Source: Delftia acidovorans NBRC 14950 | GTDB taxonomy: Bacteria > Pseudomonadota > Gammaproteobacteria > Burkholderiales > Burkholderiaceae_C | Direction: 5' to 3' | Length of the DNA: 32,000 nt | NCBI RefSeq assembly: GCF_001598795.1 | Contig: NZ_BCZP01000002.1 | Location: forward strand, 210,001 to 242,000 | The notes under the pieces: model-generated | Seen by the model: only the letters and a program-made list of their open reading frames with translations | The model's database searches: none | Told to the model about the DNA's origin: nothing | Position numbers and translations under genes: made by a program | In this document: in pieces, positions 1 through 10,033 of the stretch | Layout of the letters: each line of letters starts with the position of its first letter | Numbering within the stretch: the first letter of the stretch is position 1

Positions 1-536
1 GCCCGCAGCTCGAAGTCTTCCGCAAGAAGGGCATCGAAGTGCTGCTGATGGCCGACCGCGTGGACGAATGGGCCATGGGCTACCTGACCGAATTCGACGG
101 CACGCCGCTGCAGTCCGTGGCCAAGGGCGCCGTGGACCTGGGCAAGCTGCAGGACGAAGAGGAAAAGAAGGCCGCCGAGGAAGCGGCCGAGACTTTCAAG
201 CCCCTGCTGGCCAAGCTCAAGGAAGCGCTCAAGGACAAGGCCGAGGACGTGCGCGTGACCACGCGCCTGGTGGACTCGCCCGCCTGCCTGGTGGTGCAGG
301 ACGGCGGCATGAGCCTGCAACTGGCGCGCCTGCTCAAGCAGGCCGGCCAGCAGGCGCCGGACGCCCGCCCCGTGCTGGAGGTCAATCCCGAGCATCCGCT
401 GGTCAAGAAGCTGGACGGTTCGGTGCATTTCCATGACCTGGCCAACATCCTGTTCGACCAGGCCGTGTTGGCCGAAGGCGGCATGCCCGAAGACCCGGCC
501 GCCTACGTCAGGCGCGTGAACGCGCTGCTGGCGTGA
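1..536 (+). CDS. htpG: Molecular chaperone HtpG (Hsp90 family), C-terminal part; the 5' end lies outside the window
   Basis: The frame is open from base 3 ([42 protein letters not shown]...), which is typical HtpG C-terminal domain sequence. TGA stop at 534-536, followed by hairpins. Confidence 0.9.
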
Positions 537-588
537 GTTCCTCACAAGGATTGCCTCGCCGCATTCCCTAGGCCTTAGTGCCTGCTCA

Positions 589-609
589 CTGCCGCGCCAG
601 CGCGCGGCA
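589..609. other. Perfect 9-bp stem hairpin (ctgccgcgc-cag-gcgcggcag) downstream of htpG
   Basis: Inverted repeat read directly from the sequence. It has no T-tract of its own. Confidence 0.5.
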
Positions 610-620
610 GATCAGCATTG

Positions 621-655
621 CAAGCCGGTGCCAGCCAAGCTGCCACCGGCTTTTT
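621..655 (+). terminator. Rho-independent terminator of htpG
   Basis: Stem aagccggtg / caccggctt with a 13-nt loop, running into TTTTT (650-654). Confidence 0.6.
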
Positions 656-679
656 CACGTCTGCGTTCCGTGAGGAAAA

Positions 680-790
680 CCGACCGAAAAAGCTCGACTC
701 ACAAAAAACTCACAAATACTTCTAAATACTCACTTTTGTTAAAAATTCCAGATCATATTTACTTTTGGTAATAAAGAACCATCATGCCTC
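680..790 (+). promoter_or_regulatory. AT-rich control region upstream of the DUF11/IPTL-CTERM gene, with a candidate extended -10 (TGgTAATAA, 766-774)
   Basis: Sharp drop in GC relative to the flanks. ACTCAC hexamers at 697, 708 and 728. ACTTTTG at 732 and 761. TG-n-TAATAA at 766-774, about 130 nt before the ATG at 902. Confidence 0.35.
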
Positions 791-901
791 CTTTTGGTGC
801 GTCCGGTTGTCGGCTTTTTGACAGAGCTGTTCCAGCCGGGCACCTCGTGCGTCCGTGCCTGCGGCATTCGGCGCTGTCAACGAAGCAAAAGAGAGGTTTG
901 T

Positions 902-3900
902 ATGGCTTTCACGAGAAAGGGCTGGCTGGCGCGTGCGCTGCTGTCCGGCGGCTTGCTGGCAACAGCGGCTGCCGTGGCGGCGCCGGCCGACACCGACATC
1001 CTGGTCAACCAGGACGGTCTCTATGACGGACAGGACGCATCGGCAGGCCCTGCCGGCGGCACCTTCACCTATGTGGCCAAGGTCAGGCACAACAACATCG
1101 GTCCCGACGCCGTAGGCGTCACCCTGACCGAGGTGCTGCCCGTGGGCGCCGTGTTCCAGGGCTACAGCAGCAGCCCGGGCGGCATCACCTGCACGGCACC
1201 CGCGGCCGGTACGGTGCTCACCGCAGGCAACAACACGCTGGTCTGCAACATCGGCAACCTGGCGCCCGCCGATGGCTTCAAGTCCGTGGGCTTCGAGGTC
1301 ATCCTGCCGACCGTCGGCACCAACTGGCGCGCCGTGGCCAGTGCGCGCATGGCCTCGCCCGACTACGACAACGACCAGAACAACACGCAGCTGGACCGCA
1401 ACTTCACCACCACCGAGGCCGCCGATCTGGCCATCGCGATGGCCGCTCCCGCCAGCGTCGCCAACGGCGGCGCCTTCCAGTACACCATCGACGTGCAGAA
1501 CAAGGGCCCGTCCGAGGTGCCCGCCGGTGGCCGTACCGTGGTGCGTTTCCCCGTGCCCAACGGCGCCGTGATCACGGGCGCGCCTGCAGGCAGCGGCTGG
1601 AGCTGTACGCCCGCCTCGGGCTATCCGCTGATCTCGGGCGAACTCAGCTGCACGCGCGGCGGACCCGTGGCGCCGGGCGCCGTGCTGCCTTCCATCTCCG
1701 TGCCGGCCATCGCCAACATGAGCGGCACCATTGCTGGCGCTGCCAGCGTCAAGGGCTACAAGGACGCCAGCACGGAGATGCCGGACGGCCAGTCCGGCAA
1801 CAACACCGCCAGCGCCGCCGTGGTCTCCAGCGGCAGCGAGTTCGTGGATGTCTCGCTGCGCAAGCAGGTGGCGCCCACGGTGCTGGATGCGCTGCAGGCG
1901 ACCGAGGTCACCTACACGCTGCAGCCGCGCCGCGAGGGCGGCTCCCTCGTGCCGCGCGATCTCACCGTCACCGACACCCTGCCGGCCGGCGTGACCTTCA
2001 CGGGCTTCGACGGCAGCACGGCGCCCTGGAACTGCGGCCACAACAGCGGCACCATTACCTGCACCCACGCGGGCGAGTACCCGGTGGCCGGCTACGCCAA
2101 CATGCAGGCCATCCGCTTCAAGGCCAGCGTGGCTGCGGGTGGAACGCCGGGTGCGCAACTGGTCAATCAGGGCGTGATCGGGGTTCCACCCGAACTCAAC
2201 GAGCCCAACAAGACCAACAACACCGATAGCGCGGCGGTGAGCTTCAGCAACGATGCGCGGCTGCGCCTCGTCAAGGCCGGCCCCAGCCGCCCGGTGCTGG
2301 CGGGTGAGGAGTTCCAGTACACGATCACGGTGACCAACAACGGTCCCATGCCTGTGCTGCCGAATCAGCTGATCACCGTATCCGACACCCCTGCGGACAA
2401 CCGAATGACCGTCATCGGCATGTCCGGTGCGGGCACCGGCGCGGGTGACTGGACCTGCGCCGCCCAGAGCTGCACCTCGACCGCGGGCCTGGCCGTGGGC
2501 GCCAGCCGCCAGATCACGGTCAGGGCCAAGGTCACGCTGGCGTCGGGCCATCTGGACTTCACCAACAACGCCTCCGCTGGCGTGGTCGGCCGGGACAATG
2601 CATCGGCCAGCACTTCGGCCACGGTCACCGTGTCTGCCGACAAGGTGGATGTGGGCATCGTCAAGAGCGTGGTCAGCCCTGTGCCGCCGGCCTCCATCAA
2701 GAGCGGTGAAGAGGTCACCTACCAGCTGGTGGTGAAGAACCACTCGGCCAGCACGACGGTGACGAATGTCCGCGTGCGCGACGCGCTGCAGTCCCTGGTC
2801 AAGCAGACCGACGGCGTGCGCATCGTGGGCGGCAACCCGGTGGACGAGGCCGGCAATCCCGTGCCGTACACCTACCCGGGCGGCGGCTTTGTCTCCAGCC
2901 GCATCGTCTCCGGCGCAAACGCCAGTTGCGGCACGCCCACGGGCGGCGTCAACAGCGAGGCGCGCGAGTTGACCTGCACCATTGCCTCGATGGCTCCCGA
3001 CGCCGAAGTGGTGATCGAGGTCAAGATCCGCCCCAAGCGCGCCACCACCGGCACCTATGCCAACGCGGCCTCGGCCCAGTCCCTGGACATCCATGACGCC
3101 GATCCCGGCAACGATTCCTCGACGGCCAGCATCACCGTGCAGGCCATCGCGGAAATCGCCGCGCAAAAGCAGGTCTCGCCCAAGGTGGCGGCTGCGGGCG
3201 AGCCGCTGACCTATACGGTCACGGTGCCCAACTACGGCCCCTCGTCGGCCGCCAATGTCACGCTCAAGGACGTGCTGCCTGCAGACGCCATCTTCATCGG
3301 CACGCCCACGGTCTCCGGCGGCGGCACCTGTACTCCGGCTGCCACCGATGGCGTGCAGGGCGGAACGCTGGAGTGCGCCTGGACCAATCCGCTGCCCACA
3401 GGCGCGCAGTACACCGTGAGCTACAAGATGCGCTCGCGCGGCGATCTGGCGGCCGACACGGAGATCCTCAACACGGTCGCCGTGGACACCGCCACCGAGG
3501 AACTGACCAAGGCCAACAACCAGGCCGAGGCCAAGGCCCGGCTCAAGCGTGCCGAGCTGGATGTGAACATCAGCATGCGCCACACGGCGGACGGCCTGGT
3601 GCTGGGTGAGGACACCGAATACACCATCACGGTGACCAACTCCGGCCCCTCCTACGCCACCCAGGTGGTCGTGACCGACAAGTTCCCCGCATCGGGCTCC
3701 ACGGCCACCTTCAGCTACCAGAACGGCCTGGCGCTGGCCGGCATTCCCGGCGCCTCCGCATCCTGGTGCGGCGTGCAGCCGGCGCTGAACGCGACCAGCG
3801 GGCCGCTGCAGTGCACCATCCCTGCGCTGGCGCCGGGCCAGAGCATGACCATCAAGTTCAAGATGCGCGCACAGACCCTGCCCGACAAGGCATCGGGCGG

Positions 3901-4510
3901 CACCATCTACCACGAGGCCTCGGTCAAGCCCTTCGAGACGGAATGGCTGAGCAATGGCGGCGATGTGATCGTCAACAACACCACCACCGACCGGACCTCC
4001 ACCAGCCGCCAGGGCAATGCCGTGGACCTGGGGATCGGCAAGCAGGGCCCCGCCGGCCCGCTGGACGATGGCGACACGGCCAGCTACACGCTGACCGTCA
4101 CCAACTACGGCCGCGATCCGCAGTCGCCCGCGGGCGGCTCGGTGACCGACGTGCTGCCCGCCGGGCTGGAGTTCGTCTCGGCCTCGGCAGGCTGCAGCTA
4201 CGCCAGCGGCACGCGCACCGTGACCTGCAGCGTGCCGCAGCTGGCCCAGGGCGGCACGGCGGTCTTCACGCTGGAGACAAAGCTGGACAAGCCCTACAAG
4301 GGCGCCCGCCCGCTGGTCAACTCGGCCACGGTCTCGGTGCCCGGTGACGGCAATCCCGACAACGACAAGAGCACGACCACCACGCCGCTCAAGCCGGGCC
4401 CGGACACCACGGCCAGCATTCCCACGCTGTCGCAGTGGGGCCTGATGCTGATGTCGTCCCTGCTGGCGCTGATGGCGCTGGGGACCATGCGCAGGCGCGA
4501 GCGTCGGTGA
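902..4510 (+). CDS. Large secreted DUF11 (conserved repeat domain) protein with an IPTL-CTERM sorting signal; 1202 aa
   Basis: ATG at 902 preceded by aaagagagg. Signal peptide MAFTRKGWLARALLSGGLLATAAAVAAP. About 8 repeats of the pattern G-x-x-x-x-Y-T-[IL]-x-V-x-N-x-G-P ... V-x-D-x-L-P-x-G, each followed by a Cys pair. The C-terminus is IPTLSQWGLMLMSSLLALMALGTMRRRERR. Confidence 0.85.
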   Translation: MAFTRKGWLARALLSGGLLATAAAVAAPADTDILVNQDGLYDGQDASAGPAGGTFTYVAKVRHNNIGPDAVGVTLTEVLPVGAVFQGYSSSPGGITCTAPAAGTVLTAGNNTLVCNIGNLAPADGFKSVGFEVILPTVGTNWRAVASARMASPDYDNDQNNTQLDRNFTTTEAADLAIAMAAPASVANGGAFQYTIDVQNKGPSEVPAGGRTVVRFPVPNGAVITGAPAGSGWSCTPASGYPLISGELSCTRGGPVAPGAVLPSISVPAIANMSGTIAGAASVKGYKDASTEMPDGQSGNNTASAAVVSSGSEFVDVSLRKQVAPTVLDALQATEVTYTLQPRREGGSLVPRDLTVTDTLPAGVTFTGFDGSTAPWNCGHNSGTITCTHAGEYPVAGYANMQAIRFKASVAAGGTPGAQLVNQGVIGVPPELNEPNKTNNTDSAAVSFSNDARLRLVKAGPSRPVLAGEEFQYTITVTNNGPMPVLPNQLITVSDTPADNRMTVIGMSGAGTGAGDWTCAAQSCTSTAGLAVGASRQITVRAKVTLASGHLDFTNNASAGVVGRDNASASTSATVTVSADKVDVGIVKSVVSPVPPASIKSGEEVTYQLVVKNHSASTTVTNVRVRDALQSLVKQTDGVRIVGGNPVDEAGNPVPYTYPGGGFVSSRIVSGANASCGTPTGGVNSEARELTCTIASMAPDAEVVIEVKIRPKRATTGTYANAASAQSLDIHDADPGNDSSTASITVQAIAEIAAQKQVSPKVAAAGEPLTYTVTVPNYGPSSAANVTLKDVLPADAIFIGTPTVSGGGTCTPAATDGVQGGTLECAWTNPLPTGAQYTVSYKMRSRGDLAADTEILNTVAVDTATEELTKANNQAEAKARLKRAELDVNISMRHTADGLVLGEDTEYTITVTNSGPSYATQVVVTDKFPASGSTATFSYQNGLALAGIPGASASWCGVQPALNATSGPLQCTIPALAPGQSMTIKFKMRAQTLPDKASGGTIYHEASVKPFETEWLSNGGDVIVNNTTTDRTSTSRQGNAVDLGIGKQGPAGPLDDGDTASYTLTVTNYGRDPQSPAGGSVTDVLPAGLEFVSASAGCSYASGTRTVTCSVPQLAQGGTAVFTLETKLDKPYKGARPLVNSATVSVPGDGNPDNDKSTTTTPLKPGPDTTASIPTLSQWGLMLMSSLLALMALGTMRRRERR
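4418..4507 (+). other. IPTLxxWG C-terminal sorting signal (motif + TM helix + Arg cluster) of the DUF11 protein
   Basis: IPTLSQWG, then the hydrophobic stretch LMLMSSLLALMALGT, then MRRRERR and stop. This is the tripartite architecture of exosortase substrates. Confidence 0.85.
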
Positions 4511-4528
4511 TGCGCCCGTGACGGCAAG

Positions 4529-4568
4529 GGCCGGTGGCGTGATTCACGCACCGGCCTTTGTCGTCTTT
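4529..4568 (+). terminator. Rho-independent terminator after the DUF11 gene
   Basis: ggccggtg(g)gcgt-gat-tcacg... pairs back to caccggcc (8 bp + 4 bp stem with one bulge), followed by tttgtcgtcttt. Confidence 0.6.
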
Positions 4569-4586
4569 GAGCGGTCCGAAGATAAT
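4558..4586 (+). promoter_or_regulatory. Candidate sigma-70 promoter for the exosortase gene (TTGTCG-17 nt-GATAAT)
   Basis: -35 TTGTCG at 4558-4563, a 17-nt spacer, and -10 GATAAT at 4581-4586. It lies about 75 nt upstream of the ATG at 4660. Confidence 0.35.
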
Positions 4587-4659
4587 GCGAGCCTATAGAG
4601 GGACACTGTTTCGCAACTGCCAGGTCGCAAGCCCGGCAACCAACACTCCAAGACCTGCC

Positions 4660-5211
4660 ATGCTGCGCTTCTTTCTGATCTTTCTGGCCATCCAGCTGAC
4701 GATGTTCGGGCTGAACCTGCTCAGTTGGGTGCAGCAGCACATCGTGCTGCCCTGGACGGCCTTCCTGGCGCACATCTGTGCCTCGCTGGTGACCTGGTTC
4801 GACAGCACGGCCTCGGCCACGGGCAAGGTGCTGTGGAACACGGCCACGGGCTTCGGCGTCTCCATCGAGGCCGGCTGCAATGGCCTGGAGGCCTACATCG
4901 TGCTGTTTGCCGCCGTGATGGCCTTCCCCTCGTCATGGCGCCAGAAGCTGGTGGGCCTGCTGGCCGGCTTCGTGGCCGTACAGGCCATCAATGTGCTGCG
5001 CGTCATCAGCCTGTTCTACCTGGGCCAGTGGAGCACCACGGCCTTCAACTTCGCGCATGAGTACCTCTGGCAGGCGCTGATCATGCTGGACGTGCTGGTG
5101 TTCTGGCTGCTGTGGGTGCGCTGGAGCGGCCGCAAGGCGCCGTCGCAGGATGATGGCGGCCAGCCGCCGCTGCCGCCCGCCGCTGCAGCTTCCGCCGCCG
5201 TGGCCGCCTGA
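4660..5211 (+). CDS. xrtH: Exosortase family protein, XrtH-like (IPTLxxWG-CTERM-specific class); 183 aa polytopic membrane protein
   Basis: MLRFFLIFLAIQLTMFGLNLL... Conserved exosortase residues are visible: Cys in EAGCNGLE, Arg in INVLRVISL, His in FNFAHEYLW. It sits immediately downstream of an IPTL-CTERM substrate. Confidence 0.8.
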   Translation: MLRFFLIFLAIQLTMFGLNLLSWVQQHIVLPWTAFLAHICASLVTWFDSTASATGKVLWNTATGFGVSIEAGCNGLEAYIVLFAAVMAFPSSWRQKLVGLLAGFVAVQAINVLRVISLFYLGQWSTTAFNFAHEYLWQALIMLDVLVFWLLWVRWSGRKAPSQDDGGQPPLPPAAAASAAVAA

Positions 5212-5221
5212 GGAGCAGGCC

Positions 5222-5974
5222 ATGATCGGACGCAATCCCATCTCGCGCTTCGCGGCCCTGGCCATGGGCGGCATCGTGGTGCTGACCCTGGCCTGGACGC
5301 TGGCGGCTGGCTGGCTGGCCGTGCCGGTGTCCGGCATGAGCAAGTGGATGCTGGAGAACGCCGCCAACGGCTGGGTGCAGCGCGTGGACATGGAGACGCC
5401 CCGCAGCCTGGTCGTCAATTCCTCGGTCCAGGTCTCCAACGAGCAGACCGGCTGGCGCCGCGCTGAGGCCATCGTCGAGGTCGATCCCGCCCGCTACGGC
5501 TACGGCCTGCCGGTGCTGGTGGCCATGCTGCTGGCGGCCTGGGGTCCGGGCCGGTGGTGGCGCATCCTGGTTGGGTATGTGGCGCTGCTGCCGCTGCAGA
5601 CCTTCAGTGTGGTCACGCAGGTGTTGATGCAGTTGTGCCTGGCGGCCAAGCTGGACCTCAATGTGTTGGGTCTCCAGGGATGGCAGCTCAATGCCATTGT
5701 CTACGGCTACCAGATGGGGGGCCTGATGGTGCCCACGCTGGCGCCTGTACTGCTGTGGCTGGTGCTGGACATGGGCTTTGTGCGCCGCGTGCTGCTGCCG
5801 GCCTGGAACCGCAGCCGTGCTGCCGCCGCACCGCAGCCCGTGGTGGCGCCCAAGCCTTCGGCATGGCGCCAGACGGATGGCGCGGCCACCTCCACCGGCA
5901 ACCCGCTGGTGTCCTCCAGCAGCGCAGCTACCCTGCCACGGGCCAAGGCCAAGACCACGGGGCCGGCGCAGTAG
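5222..5974 (+). CDS. Exosortase H-associated membrane protein (hypothetical polytopic membrane protein); 250 aa
   Basis: ATG at 5222 preceded by gaggag, 10 nt after the xrtH stop. It has several hydrophobic helices and an Ala/Pro/Ser-rich tail. The functional label rests on position only. Confidence 0.6.
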   Translation: MIGRNPISRFAALAMGGIVVLTLAWTLAAGWLAVPVSGMSKWMLENAANGWVQRVDMETPRSLVVNSSVQVSNEQTGWRRAEAIVEVDPARYGYGLPVLVAMLLAAWGPGRWWRILVGYVALLPLQTFSVVTQVLMQLCLAAKLDLNVLGLQGWQLNAIVYGYQMGGLMVPTLAPVLLWLVLDMGFVRRVLLPAWNRSRAAAAPQPVVAPKPSAWRQTDGAATSTGNPLVSSSSAATLPRAKAKTTGPAQ

Positions 5975-6010
5975 GCCTGCACTTCCCGGCTGGCGGGCAG
6001 GCCCTGTTTT
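5974..6010 (+). terminator. Hairpin plus TTTT between the convergent exosortase-associated gene and ureG
   Basis: ggcctgc ... gcaggcc outer stem with inner cccg/cggg pairing, then ctgtttt. ureG stops at 6012 on the other strand. Confidence 0.4.
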
Positions 6011-6011
6011 C

Positions 6012-6653
<642 letters not shown>

Positions 6654-8027: not shown

Positions 8028-8093
8028 GGATTTGCTTTTTACTAAGAGTGGGTACCGCGTGACGCAACCGAAGACAGCAAAGGAGGGGTCATC

Positions 8094-8300
8094 ATGTTCG
8101 CCGTCAAACTGATCGAGGTAGGAGATGCCTTGGGATTGATCTTTCCCGAGGAGTTGCTGAGGCGTTTGAAGCTCGGCGAAGTTGACCGTTTGTACATGAG
8201 GGAGTCTGCGAACGGCAGTGTCACCTTATTTGCCTATGACCCGGATGATCATCTTCCGGGTGGTACGGGTACATCTTCTTCAGGCGATGCAAACGCGTGA
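8094..8300 (+). CDS. AbrB/MazE/SpoVT-type (antitoxin-like) small DNA-binding protein; 68 aa, orphan, on the strand opposite to the urease operon
   Basis: Strong SD aaggagg at 8078-8084 followed by ATG at 8094. [51 protein letters not shown] matches the swapped-hairpin antitoxin pattern (K-[VL]-G-x-x-x-G-[VL]-I-[LF]-P-K/E-E ... GD-x-LY ... L-x-P-YDP). The C-terminus ([16 protein letters not shown]) is atypical. Local GC is lower than the flanks. Confidence 0.55.
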
Positions 8301-8329
8301 ATCTGCTCTGCATAGGGATGACCAGATAG

Positions 8330-10033
<1,704 letters not shown>

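Follow-up and report, generated by a model that had tools for sequence, protein, structure and literature searches.

Which system do the three co-oriented genes between positions 902 and 5974 of a 32,000-nucleotide stretch of Delftia acidovorans NBRC 14950 (contig NZ_BCZP01000002.1, positions 210,001 to 242,000; the whole stretch is referred to here as the window) encode, and do their products work as a unit? A first-pass annotation, made from the sequence alone, had read them as a complete protein-sorting module of the exosortase H/IPTL-CTERM class. The list of open reading frames (ORFs) of the window places all three genes on the forward strand, with the cargo gene at 902-4510, xrtH at 4660-5211 and the gene for a partner membrane protein at 5222-5974, and all the features that had been described at these positions are present in the sequence. 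The locus is a three-gene surface-protein sorting module of D. acidovorans, made up of an adhesin-like cargo, exosortase H (XrtH) and a partner membrane protein. The features of the module located below likewise lie on the forward strand.

The three proteins were compared with the profile libraries of NCBIfam and Pfam, using the curated cut-off of each family, and all of them scored above the cut-offs of the families that make up the class, which bears out the original assignment. The product of 4660-5211 reached 236.8 bits against the XrtH model (TIGR04177, cut-off 86), better than for every other exosortase subfamily; the runner-up, XrtX, gave 70.7 bits against its own cut-off of 170, and all subfamily models other than XrtH fell under their own cut-offs. 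The exo_archaeo signature (TIGR04178) was found over residues 67-155 with 59 bits. The partner matched the XrtH_assoc model (NF041730) with 176.4 bits (cut-off 35) over model positions 1-183 of 184, an equivalog match that names it an exosortase H-associated membrane protein. The two IPTL-CTERM models, TIGR04174 (35.9 bits, cut-off 20.5) and PF18203 (40.3 bits, cut-off 20.8), both matched residues 1171-1199 of the 1202 residues of the cargo, that is, its extreme C-terminus, and the Pfam DUF11 model (PF01345) gave 298 bits over nine stretches of the same protein. Identical proteins are present in public databases under the names 'IPTL-CTERM sorting domain-containing protein', 'exosortase H' and 'exosortase H-associated membrane protein', from D. 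acidovorans and related Delftia. The exact match of the cargo is WP_034390115.1 ('IPTL-CTERM sorting domain-containing protein [Delftia acidovorans]') and that of XrtH in RefSeq is named 'exosortase H [Delftia]'. Since RefSeq already carries exactly these names, the system is known by annotation and is not a discovery. The kind of system is already known; the evidence on the pairing of xrtH with its partner and on a tail motif is new.

The pairing was assessed by comparative genomics. A scan of species-representative genomes with an XrtH alignment yielded 80 loci, nearly all of them from Comamonadaceae, the closest being that of Delftia tsuruhatensis (99%). In 77 of 78 species loci (two further contigs end at xrtH), the partner gene is co-oriented with xrtH and lies directly 3' of it, and Xylophilus sp. 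ASV27 (L082) provides the only species locus without a partner after xrtH. Metagenomes were scanned with a partner alignment (A2) as query, a more diverse alignment (A5) being too divergent for the scan, and an xrtH ORF was found directly 5' of the partner in 72 of the 73 loci with room for one. The two genes are a near-obligate pair. As separate observations, the Xylophilus locus has, next after xrtH, an ORF of about 1069 amino acids (aa) on the opposite strand, and one locus (L118) carries a partner homologue without xrtH upstream.

The tail motif concerns the same two proteins. In the window it reads VSSSSAATLP (5909-5938, identified with a regular expression across loci) and lies in the predicted cytoplasmic C-terminal tail of the partner. 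Across loci, this Ser-rich motif is carried on a low-complexity tail past the last helix either of XrtH, in the form LVS[ST]SLDLSPP, or of the partner, in the form [VI]SSS[AS][AS]A[GTV]LPP, with a Pro/Ala-rich linker before it and basic residues after it. When one regular expression was applied to 77 species loci, the motif was present on XrtH only in 26, on the partner only in 32, on both in none and on neither in 19 (one-sided Fisher p = 1e-8 for mutual exclusion, uncorrected for phylogeny). Applied to the other six-frame ORF segments of these loci, 1.9 million residues in all, the expression had no match, and the metagenome loci show the same exclusivity. In two sequences (P0147 and P0159) the motif stands before the first helix of the partner, at its N-terminus; all motif positions are predicted to be cytoplasmic. 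The occurrence of the motif on XrtH or on the partner, and never on both, argues that the two act as one complex, the simplest reading being that XrtH and the partner form a unit for which a single copy of the motif peptide is required. A more elaborate proposal, which we put forward tentatively, is that of an obligate two-subunit sortase with one portable cytoplasmic docking peptide (a Pro-rich linker plus [VI]S[ST]S..L[SP]P), which might couple the periplasmic processing of an isopeptide-reinforced adhesin rod to a cytoplasmic factor for localisation, regulation or turnover; to our knowledge, no exosortase or archaeosortase has been described with this layout. Where XrtH does not carry the motif (L007-L086), small non-polar residues nearly always close its short tail (-AALA, -AVAA, -LAAA, -PVAA), and these ends may recall C-terminal degradation tags or could reflect low-complexity bias alone.

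XrtH itself is a protein of 183 aa that begins MLRFF, in common with all its homologues. The first-pass annotation had pointed to Cys, Arg and His residues within the motifs EAGCNGLE, LRVISL and FAHEYLW, and these residues are kept on alignment: Cys73 (codon at 4876-4878), Arg114 (4999-5001) and His133 (5056-5058), together with Arg154 (5119-5121), are invariant in 52 homologues of 66-89% identity. In the archaeosortase ArtA of Haloferax, Cys173, Arg214 and Arg253 are required for activity and the products are lipid-anchored (PMC9263693). The Cys-to-Arg spacing of 41 residues in XrtH equals that of Cys173 and Arg214 in ArtA, and Arg154 lies 40 residues beyond Arg114, versus 39 for Arg253 of ArtA; judging from spacing rather than from an alignment with ArtA, the Cys and the two Arg of XrtH may be equivalent to those of the archaeal enzyme. 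The AlphaFold2 (AF2) model of XrtH (predicted local distance difference test, pLDDT, 80; predicted template modelling score, pTM, 0.67) comprises helices at residues 2-19 and 22-47, then three short strands (51-68) that shortly precede Cys73, and finally helices at 76-88, 93-124 and 126-158. No structural match for this model and no relative by sequence was found in the PDB; the sequence matches to HIV protease returned by that search contain no significant stretch and were dismissed as spurious.

The partner (250 aa; NF041730, PF28117) follows closely. Its ATG stands 10 nucleotides (nt) past the stop codon of xrtH and is preceded by a Shine-Dalgarno sequence of its own, as had been noted at first pass; the sequence is GGAG at 5212-5215, 6 nt before the ATG. 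Four transmembrane (TM) helices are predicted, with a three-stranded sheet between TM1 and TM2. The AF2 model (pLDDT 83, pTM 0.72) shows four long helices, with the sheet (residues 52-87) sitting between the first helix pair and the remaining helices; by the positive-inside rule, both termini would be cytoplasmic and the sheet periplasmic. The family comprises 669 representatives at 50% identity, nearly all of about 200 aa, and no fusion to XrtH was seen among the long outliers inspected. Among 83 divergent members, Trp179 alone is invariant, while Trp25, Leu102, Ala105, Gln164, Leu168 and Pro175 are conserved in at least 90%. No typical nucleophile or acid-base residue is conserved across these 83 members, which makes an enzymatic role unlikely. 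Searches of the PDB with the model (Foldseek) and with the sequence gave no match, and Pfam returned no other family for this protein.

The cargo is encoded by 1202 codons read from an ATG at 902, preceded by AAAGAGAGG, inside a longer ORF at 794-4510. It opens with a Sec-type signal peptide of about 27 residues (MAFTRKGWLARALLSGGLLATAAAVAA; 902-982) with a basic n-region, a hydrophobic core and an A-x-A site, features that were read from the sequence itself. A self-profile search delimits eight to nine tandem Ig-like repeats forming a stalk (aa 43-1158; 1028-4375), with limits at 43-164, 178-304, 321-440, 456-573, 591-741, 755-828, 890-1012 and 1045-1158, so that the repeats span the whole mature protein as far as a short Thr/Pro linker. 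The C-terminus, which reads TTASIPTLSQWGLMLMSSLLALMALGTMRRRERR up to the stop codon, holds the tripartite sorting signal (4418-4507), identified by hidden Markov models and a motif scan: IPTLSQWG, a hydrophobic helix (LMLMSSLLALMALGTM) and RRRERR, just as the first-pass annotation had it. DUF11, for which the name CLIPPER has lately been introduced, has been crystallised; it is a stalk domain of fibrillar adhesins with an isopeptide bond, and structure 9IFR has the isopeptide triad Lys715, Asp748 and Asn806 (PMC12617251). In the last repeat of the cargo, Lys1047, Asp1083 and Asn1140 have a spacing like that of this triad; the other repeats gave only partial or unaligned matches. A PDB sequence search with the cargo gave no match. 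The self-profile repeat map of residues 43-1158 contains no distinct N-terminal adhesive domain, so that the protein could equally be a fibril or surface-layer component. Two further candidates were discarded. Membership of the midcut-by-XrtH family (NF033207) was rejected, with a score of 32.4 bits below the cut-off of 45, a match confined to the sorting-signal part (residues 1159-1201) and no mid-protein signals in the loci. A second cargo in the window was rejected because a search of all six frames for IPTL-type or tripartite C-terminal signals found none besides that of the cargo.

Linkage of the cargo to xrtH is looser than that of the partner. A gene with a tripartite signal lies directly 5' of xrtH in 30 of the 80 species, most of these signals reading IPTLS[EQ]WG; a cargo gene lies elsewhere within 10 kb in a few species, two loci have two cargo genes, and about half have none within 10 kb. 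The cargo gene is optional at this site. Upstream of xrtH, htpG is present in 57 of the 80 loci, at a distance of 44-450 nt where no cargo intervenes and of 4-8 kb where one does, so that the stretch between htpG and xrtH acts like a variable slot for cargo. The linkage to htpG is absent from the distant metagenome loci, which points to lineage synteny, and a functional link to htpG was rejected on this ground. The identical XrtH occurs in many Delftia genomes of 6.4-6.8 Mb, where its gene is again preceded by htpG and followed by ureGFE on the opposite strand. Eight Comamonas loci (L033, L034, L042, L049, L051, L053, L054 and L060) carry a cargo of about 1440 aa directly 5' of xrtH; these proteins end in a degenerate signal, VPVPTLAPGALLL...RLGRR or VPSLGAYS..., without the Trp-Gly of IPTLxxWG, so that [IV]P[TAS][LM] describes the conserved core of the signal more closely.

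The cargo gene and xrtH are separated by 149 nt, for which the first-pass annotation had proposed a terminator of the cargo gene and a candidate promoter overlapping it. RNA folding places an intrinsic-terminator-like hairpin with a T-rich tail at 4520-4571; its 46-nt hairpin (4520-4565) has a folding energy of -43.7 kcal/mol (z = -5.06 against shuffles) and is followed by the T-rich stretch. A sigma-70-like promoter candidate for xrtH and the partner gene, TTGTCG-17-GATAAT, lies at 4558-4586 and is the sole match of this type in 400-6400, against a chance expectation of 0.4. Most of the 21 IPTL-type loci of other species that were examined have a strong GC hairpin and a T-rich run between cargo and xrtH, in gaps of 69-207 nt, and the hairpin sequences are unrelated to one another. 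Between Delftia and a divergent relative (L009), stem pairs change by compensatory substitution (GGCCGGTG/CACCGGCC, GGCCGGGGG/CCCCGGCC, GGCCGGTGG/CCACCGGCC), and such changes are seen in both L008 (D. acidovorans MMO-42) and L009. In the alignment of Delftia with L009, GAAGATAATGC is invariant while its flanks vary and the -35-like TTGTCG is nearly invariant; the GATAAT box is conserved after the hairpin in Delftia. At the level of sequence, conservation across loci and within the Delftia alignment supports the arrangement envisaged, in which a putative terminator closes the cargo gene and the enzyme pair has a weak candidate promoter of its own.

Taken together, these data lead to a model that we regard as probable, the steps after export being modelled on archaeosortase A and other sorting enzymes. 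Sec would export the cargo, and its C-terminal helix would keep it tethered in the inner membrane, with the basic tail in the cytoplasm and the IPTLxxWG motif at the periplasmic face. In a complex of XrtH with its partner, Cys73 would attack the peptide bond at or near the motif and the helix would be removed; the acyl intermediate could then be resolved by water, giving release, or by a lipid or glycan amine, giving re-anchoring. The rod-shaped cargo would finally be displayed as a fibrillar adhesin or a surface-layer component. Within this scheme, the partner would most likely be a non-catalytic scaffold or substrate-docking subunit, and a terminator behind the cargo gene, its tail overlapped by a weak promoter, would yield the structural protein in excess over the enzyme pair.

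The last step of this model has a variant in which XrtH is a release protease only, cutting off the helix and freeing the DUF11 rod into the periplasm for secretion, with no C-terminal attachment and with a partner whose sole part is to stabilise the enzyme. In most sorting enzymes of this type, the endopeptidase step is the only one with experimental backing, and one-step transpeptidation is unproven (bioRxiv 10.1101/2023.06.07.544157), and no lipid- or glycan-transfer enzyme is encoded in the module. However, the substrates of ArtA and of rhombosortase gain a new C-terminal lipid-type moiety (PMC9263693; bioRxiv 10.1101/2023.06.07.544157), and the acceptor could be bulk membrane lipid, with no need of a dedicated gene; release alone is a conceivable, if rather doubtful, outcome. 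With regard to the partner, it could also be supposed that it is a catalytically dead paralogue of XrtH, a pseudo-exosortase forming a heterodimer and replacing the helices that the minimal XrtH lacks. The profile-profile probability of homology is at most 1%, and although the global profile alignment is collinear and scores 10.2, versus 0-5 for 30 column shuffles, a reversed-sequence control scored higher still (14.7), so that the signal may reflect membrane-protein composition only. Homology of the partner to XrtH was rejected on these figures. The idea is retained as an unlikely alternative in view of the order of elements shared by both AF2 models (two helices, a small three-stranded sheet and three long helices) and of the N-terminal third of the Pfam exosortase model that is missing from XrtH.

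Coincidental gene order is the remaining explanation; here the C-terminal helix would anchor the cargo permanently in the inner membrane, and the proteins on which XrtH and its partner act would be encoded elsewhere in the genome. The species with the gene pair and no cargo within 10 kb, in at least 15 of which htpG abuts xrtH directly, and the existence of midcut-by-XrtH as a separate NCBIfam substrate family are compatible with it. Against this, the cargo tail matches sorting-signal models that are defined by co-occurrence with XrtH, and the placement of such a gene directly 5' of xrtH in 30 of 80 species is far above what chance would give in a 6-Mb genome, which renders coincidence very improbable.

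The model of a joint XrtH-partner sorting reaction also has to be set against a number of weaknesses. XrtH does not have the N-terminal third of classical exosortases, PF09721 (Exosortase_EpsH) matching it only over model positions 104-253 of 254, and it might be unable to work on its own or might act differently. Cleavage by XrtH, the cleavage site and re-anchoring are proposed by analogy, and the physical interaction between XrtH and the partner is suggested by gene order and motif distribution, the mutual-exclusion statistic being inflated by shared ancestry. As about half of the species have no cargo within 10 kb, the enzyme also serves unlinked substrates, and the adjacent cargo may be neither its sole nor its principal target here. 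The promoter candidate is a weak one, matching at 9 of 12 positions, the T-tail of the terminator is interrupted, and nothing in the window accounts for outer-membrane transit. Lastly, a literature search found no experimental paper on XrtH, consistent with the earlier remark that the class is experimentally unstudied, and we know of no bacterial exosortase with a defined cleavage site, acceptor or structure.

The sole paper mentioning IPTL-CTERM that the search returned describes a surface-layer (S-layer) protein of Methylomirabilis. This protein, mela_00855 of M. lanthanidiphila, is an S-layer subunit of 312 aa with a predicted IPTL-CTERM domain, and immunolocalisation placed it in the outermost layer of a diderm cell; unlike the Delftia cargo it is not a DUF11 rod, and its paper is silent on exosortases (PMC8671808). 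The Delftia locus is a member of the exosortase H/IPTL-CTERM system (TIGR04177, TIGR04174, NF041730; PF18203, PF28117) with no defining difference. Its gene order and motif are typical of Comamonadaceae relatives; within that range, it is the partner, not XrtH, that has the motif-bearing tail, and the variable slot between htpG and xrtH is occupied by a cargo gene. The archaeosortase A/PGF-CTERM system of Haloferax volcanii shares the enzyme superfamily, a tripartite substrate signal and a conserved Cys and two Arg with matching spacing. ArtA is archaeal, works in a single-membrane cell and recognises PGF, its products being lipid-anchored with the help of PssA and PssD, whereas XrtH is much shorter, belongs to a diderm host, has an obligate partner gene and, with a chemistry presumed by analogy, would recognise IPTLxxWG. 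Exosortase A (EpsH/XrtA) and the PEP-CTERM proteins are the bacterial counterpart from the same family, acting on a C-terminal signal of motif, helix and basic residues. Typical XrtA genomes hold many PEP-CTERM proteins. Unlike XrtA, XrtH lies outside any exopolysaccharide locus and has a partner family specific to it. Gram-positive sortases, with LPXTG pilins and adhesins that contain isopeptide domains, are alike in outline and, by analogy, offer a covalently stabilised Ig-like stalk, a motif-helix-basic signal and an adjacent membrane Cys enzyme; the sortase differs in its unrelated fold, a soluble beta-barrel on one anchor helix, and in its acceptor, lipid II or peptidoglycan.

Such a system could hardly be smaller than at this locus, where a culturable organism encodes a single enzyme of 183 aa, a single partner and, next to them, a single large cargo, and this minimal make-up gives biochemists a practical place to start. 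Covalently stabilised stalk proteins, the class to which the cargo belongs, are linked to adhesion and biofilms. The value of the locus thus lies in a clean test case and compact experimental model, together with the pairing and tail-motif evidence, and not in a new kind of system.

Other features were noted around the module. On the 5' side of the cargo gene, an AT-rich block at 724-806 (forward strand) is kept in the divergent relative L009 though its flanks diverge, and this conservation marks it as a candidate promoter or regulator-binding region; it contains no match to the sigma-70 consensus. A sigma-54 promoter considered 5' of the cargo gene (TGGTGCG...TTGT) was rejected, as it was found by eye not to be conserved in L009. 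Three ACTCAC repeats are present in Delftia inside and just 5' of the AT-rich block, at about 699-734. Just 3' of htpG, a conserved hairpin with a T5 run (AGCCGGTGCCAGCCAAGCTGCCACCGGCTTTTT) at 623-656 is probably the htpG terminator, isolating the cargo gene from htpG transcription. Downstream of the module, the region between ureE and ureC (8033-8333) is a variable islet. In the window and in L008 it consists of about 300 nt with an AbrB/MazE-like ORF of 68 aa (8094-8300), in Delftia loci L001-L003 and L005 it holds a MazE antitoxin and a Fic gene, and in L004 and L006 it has neither.

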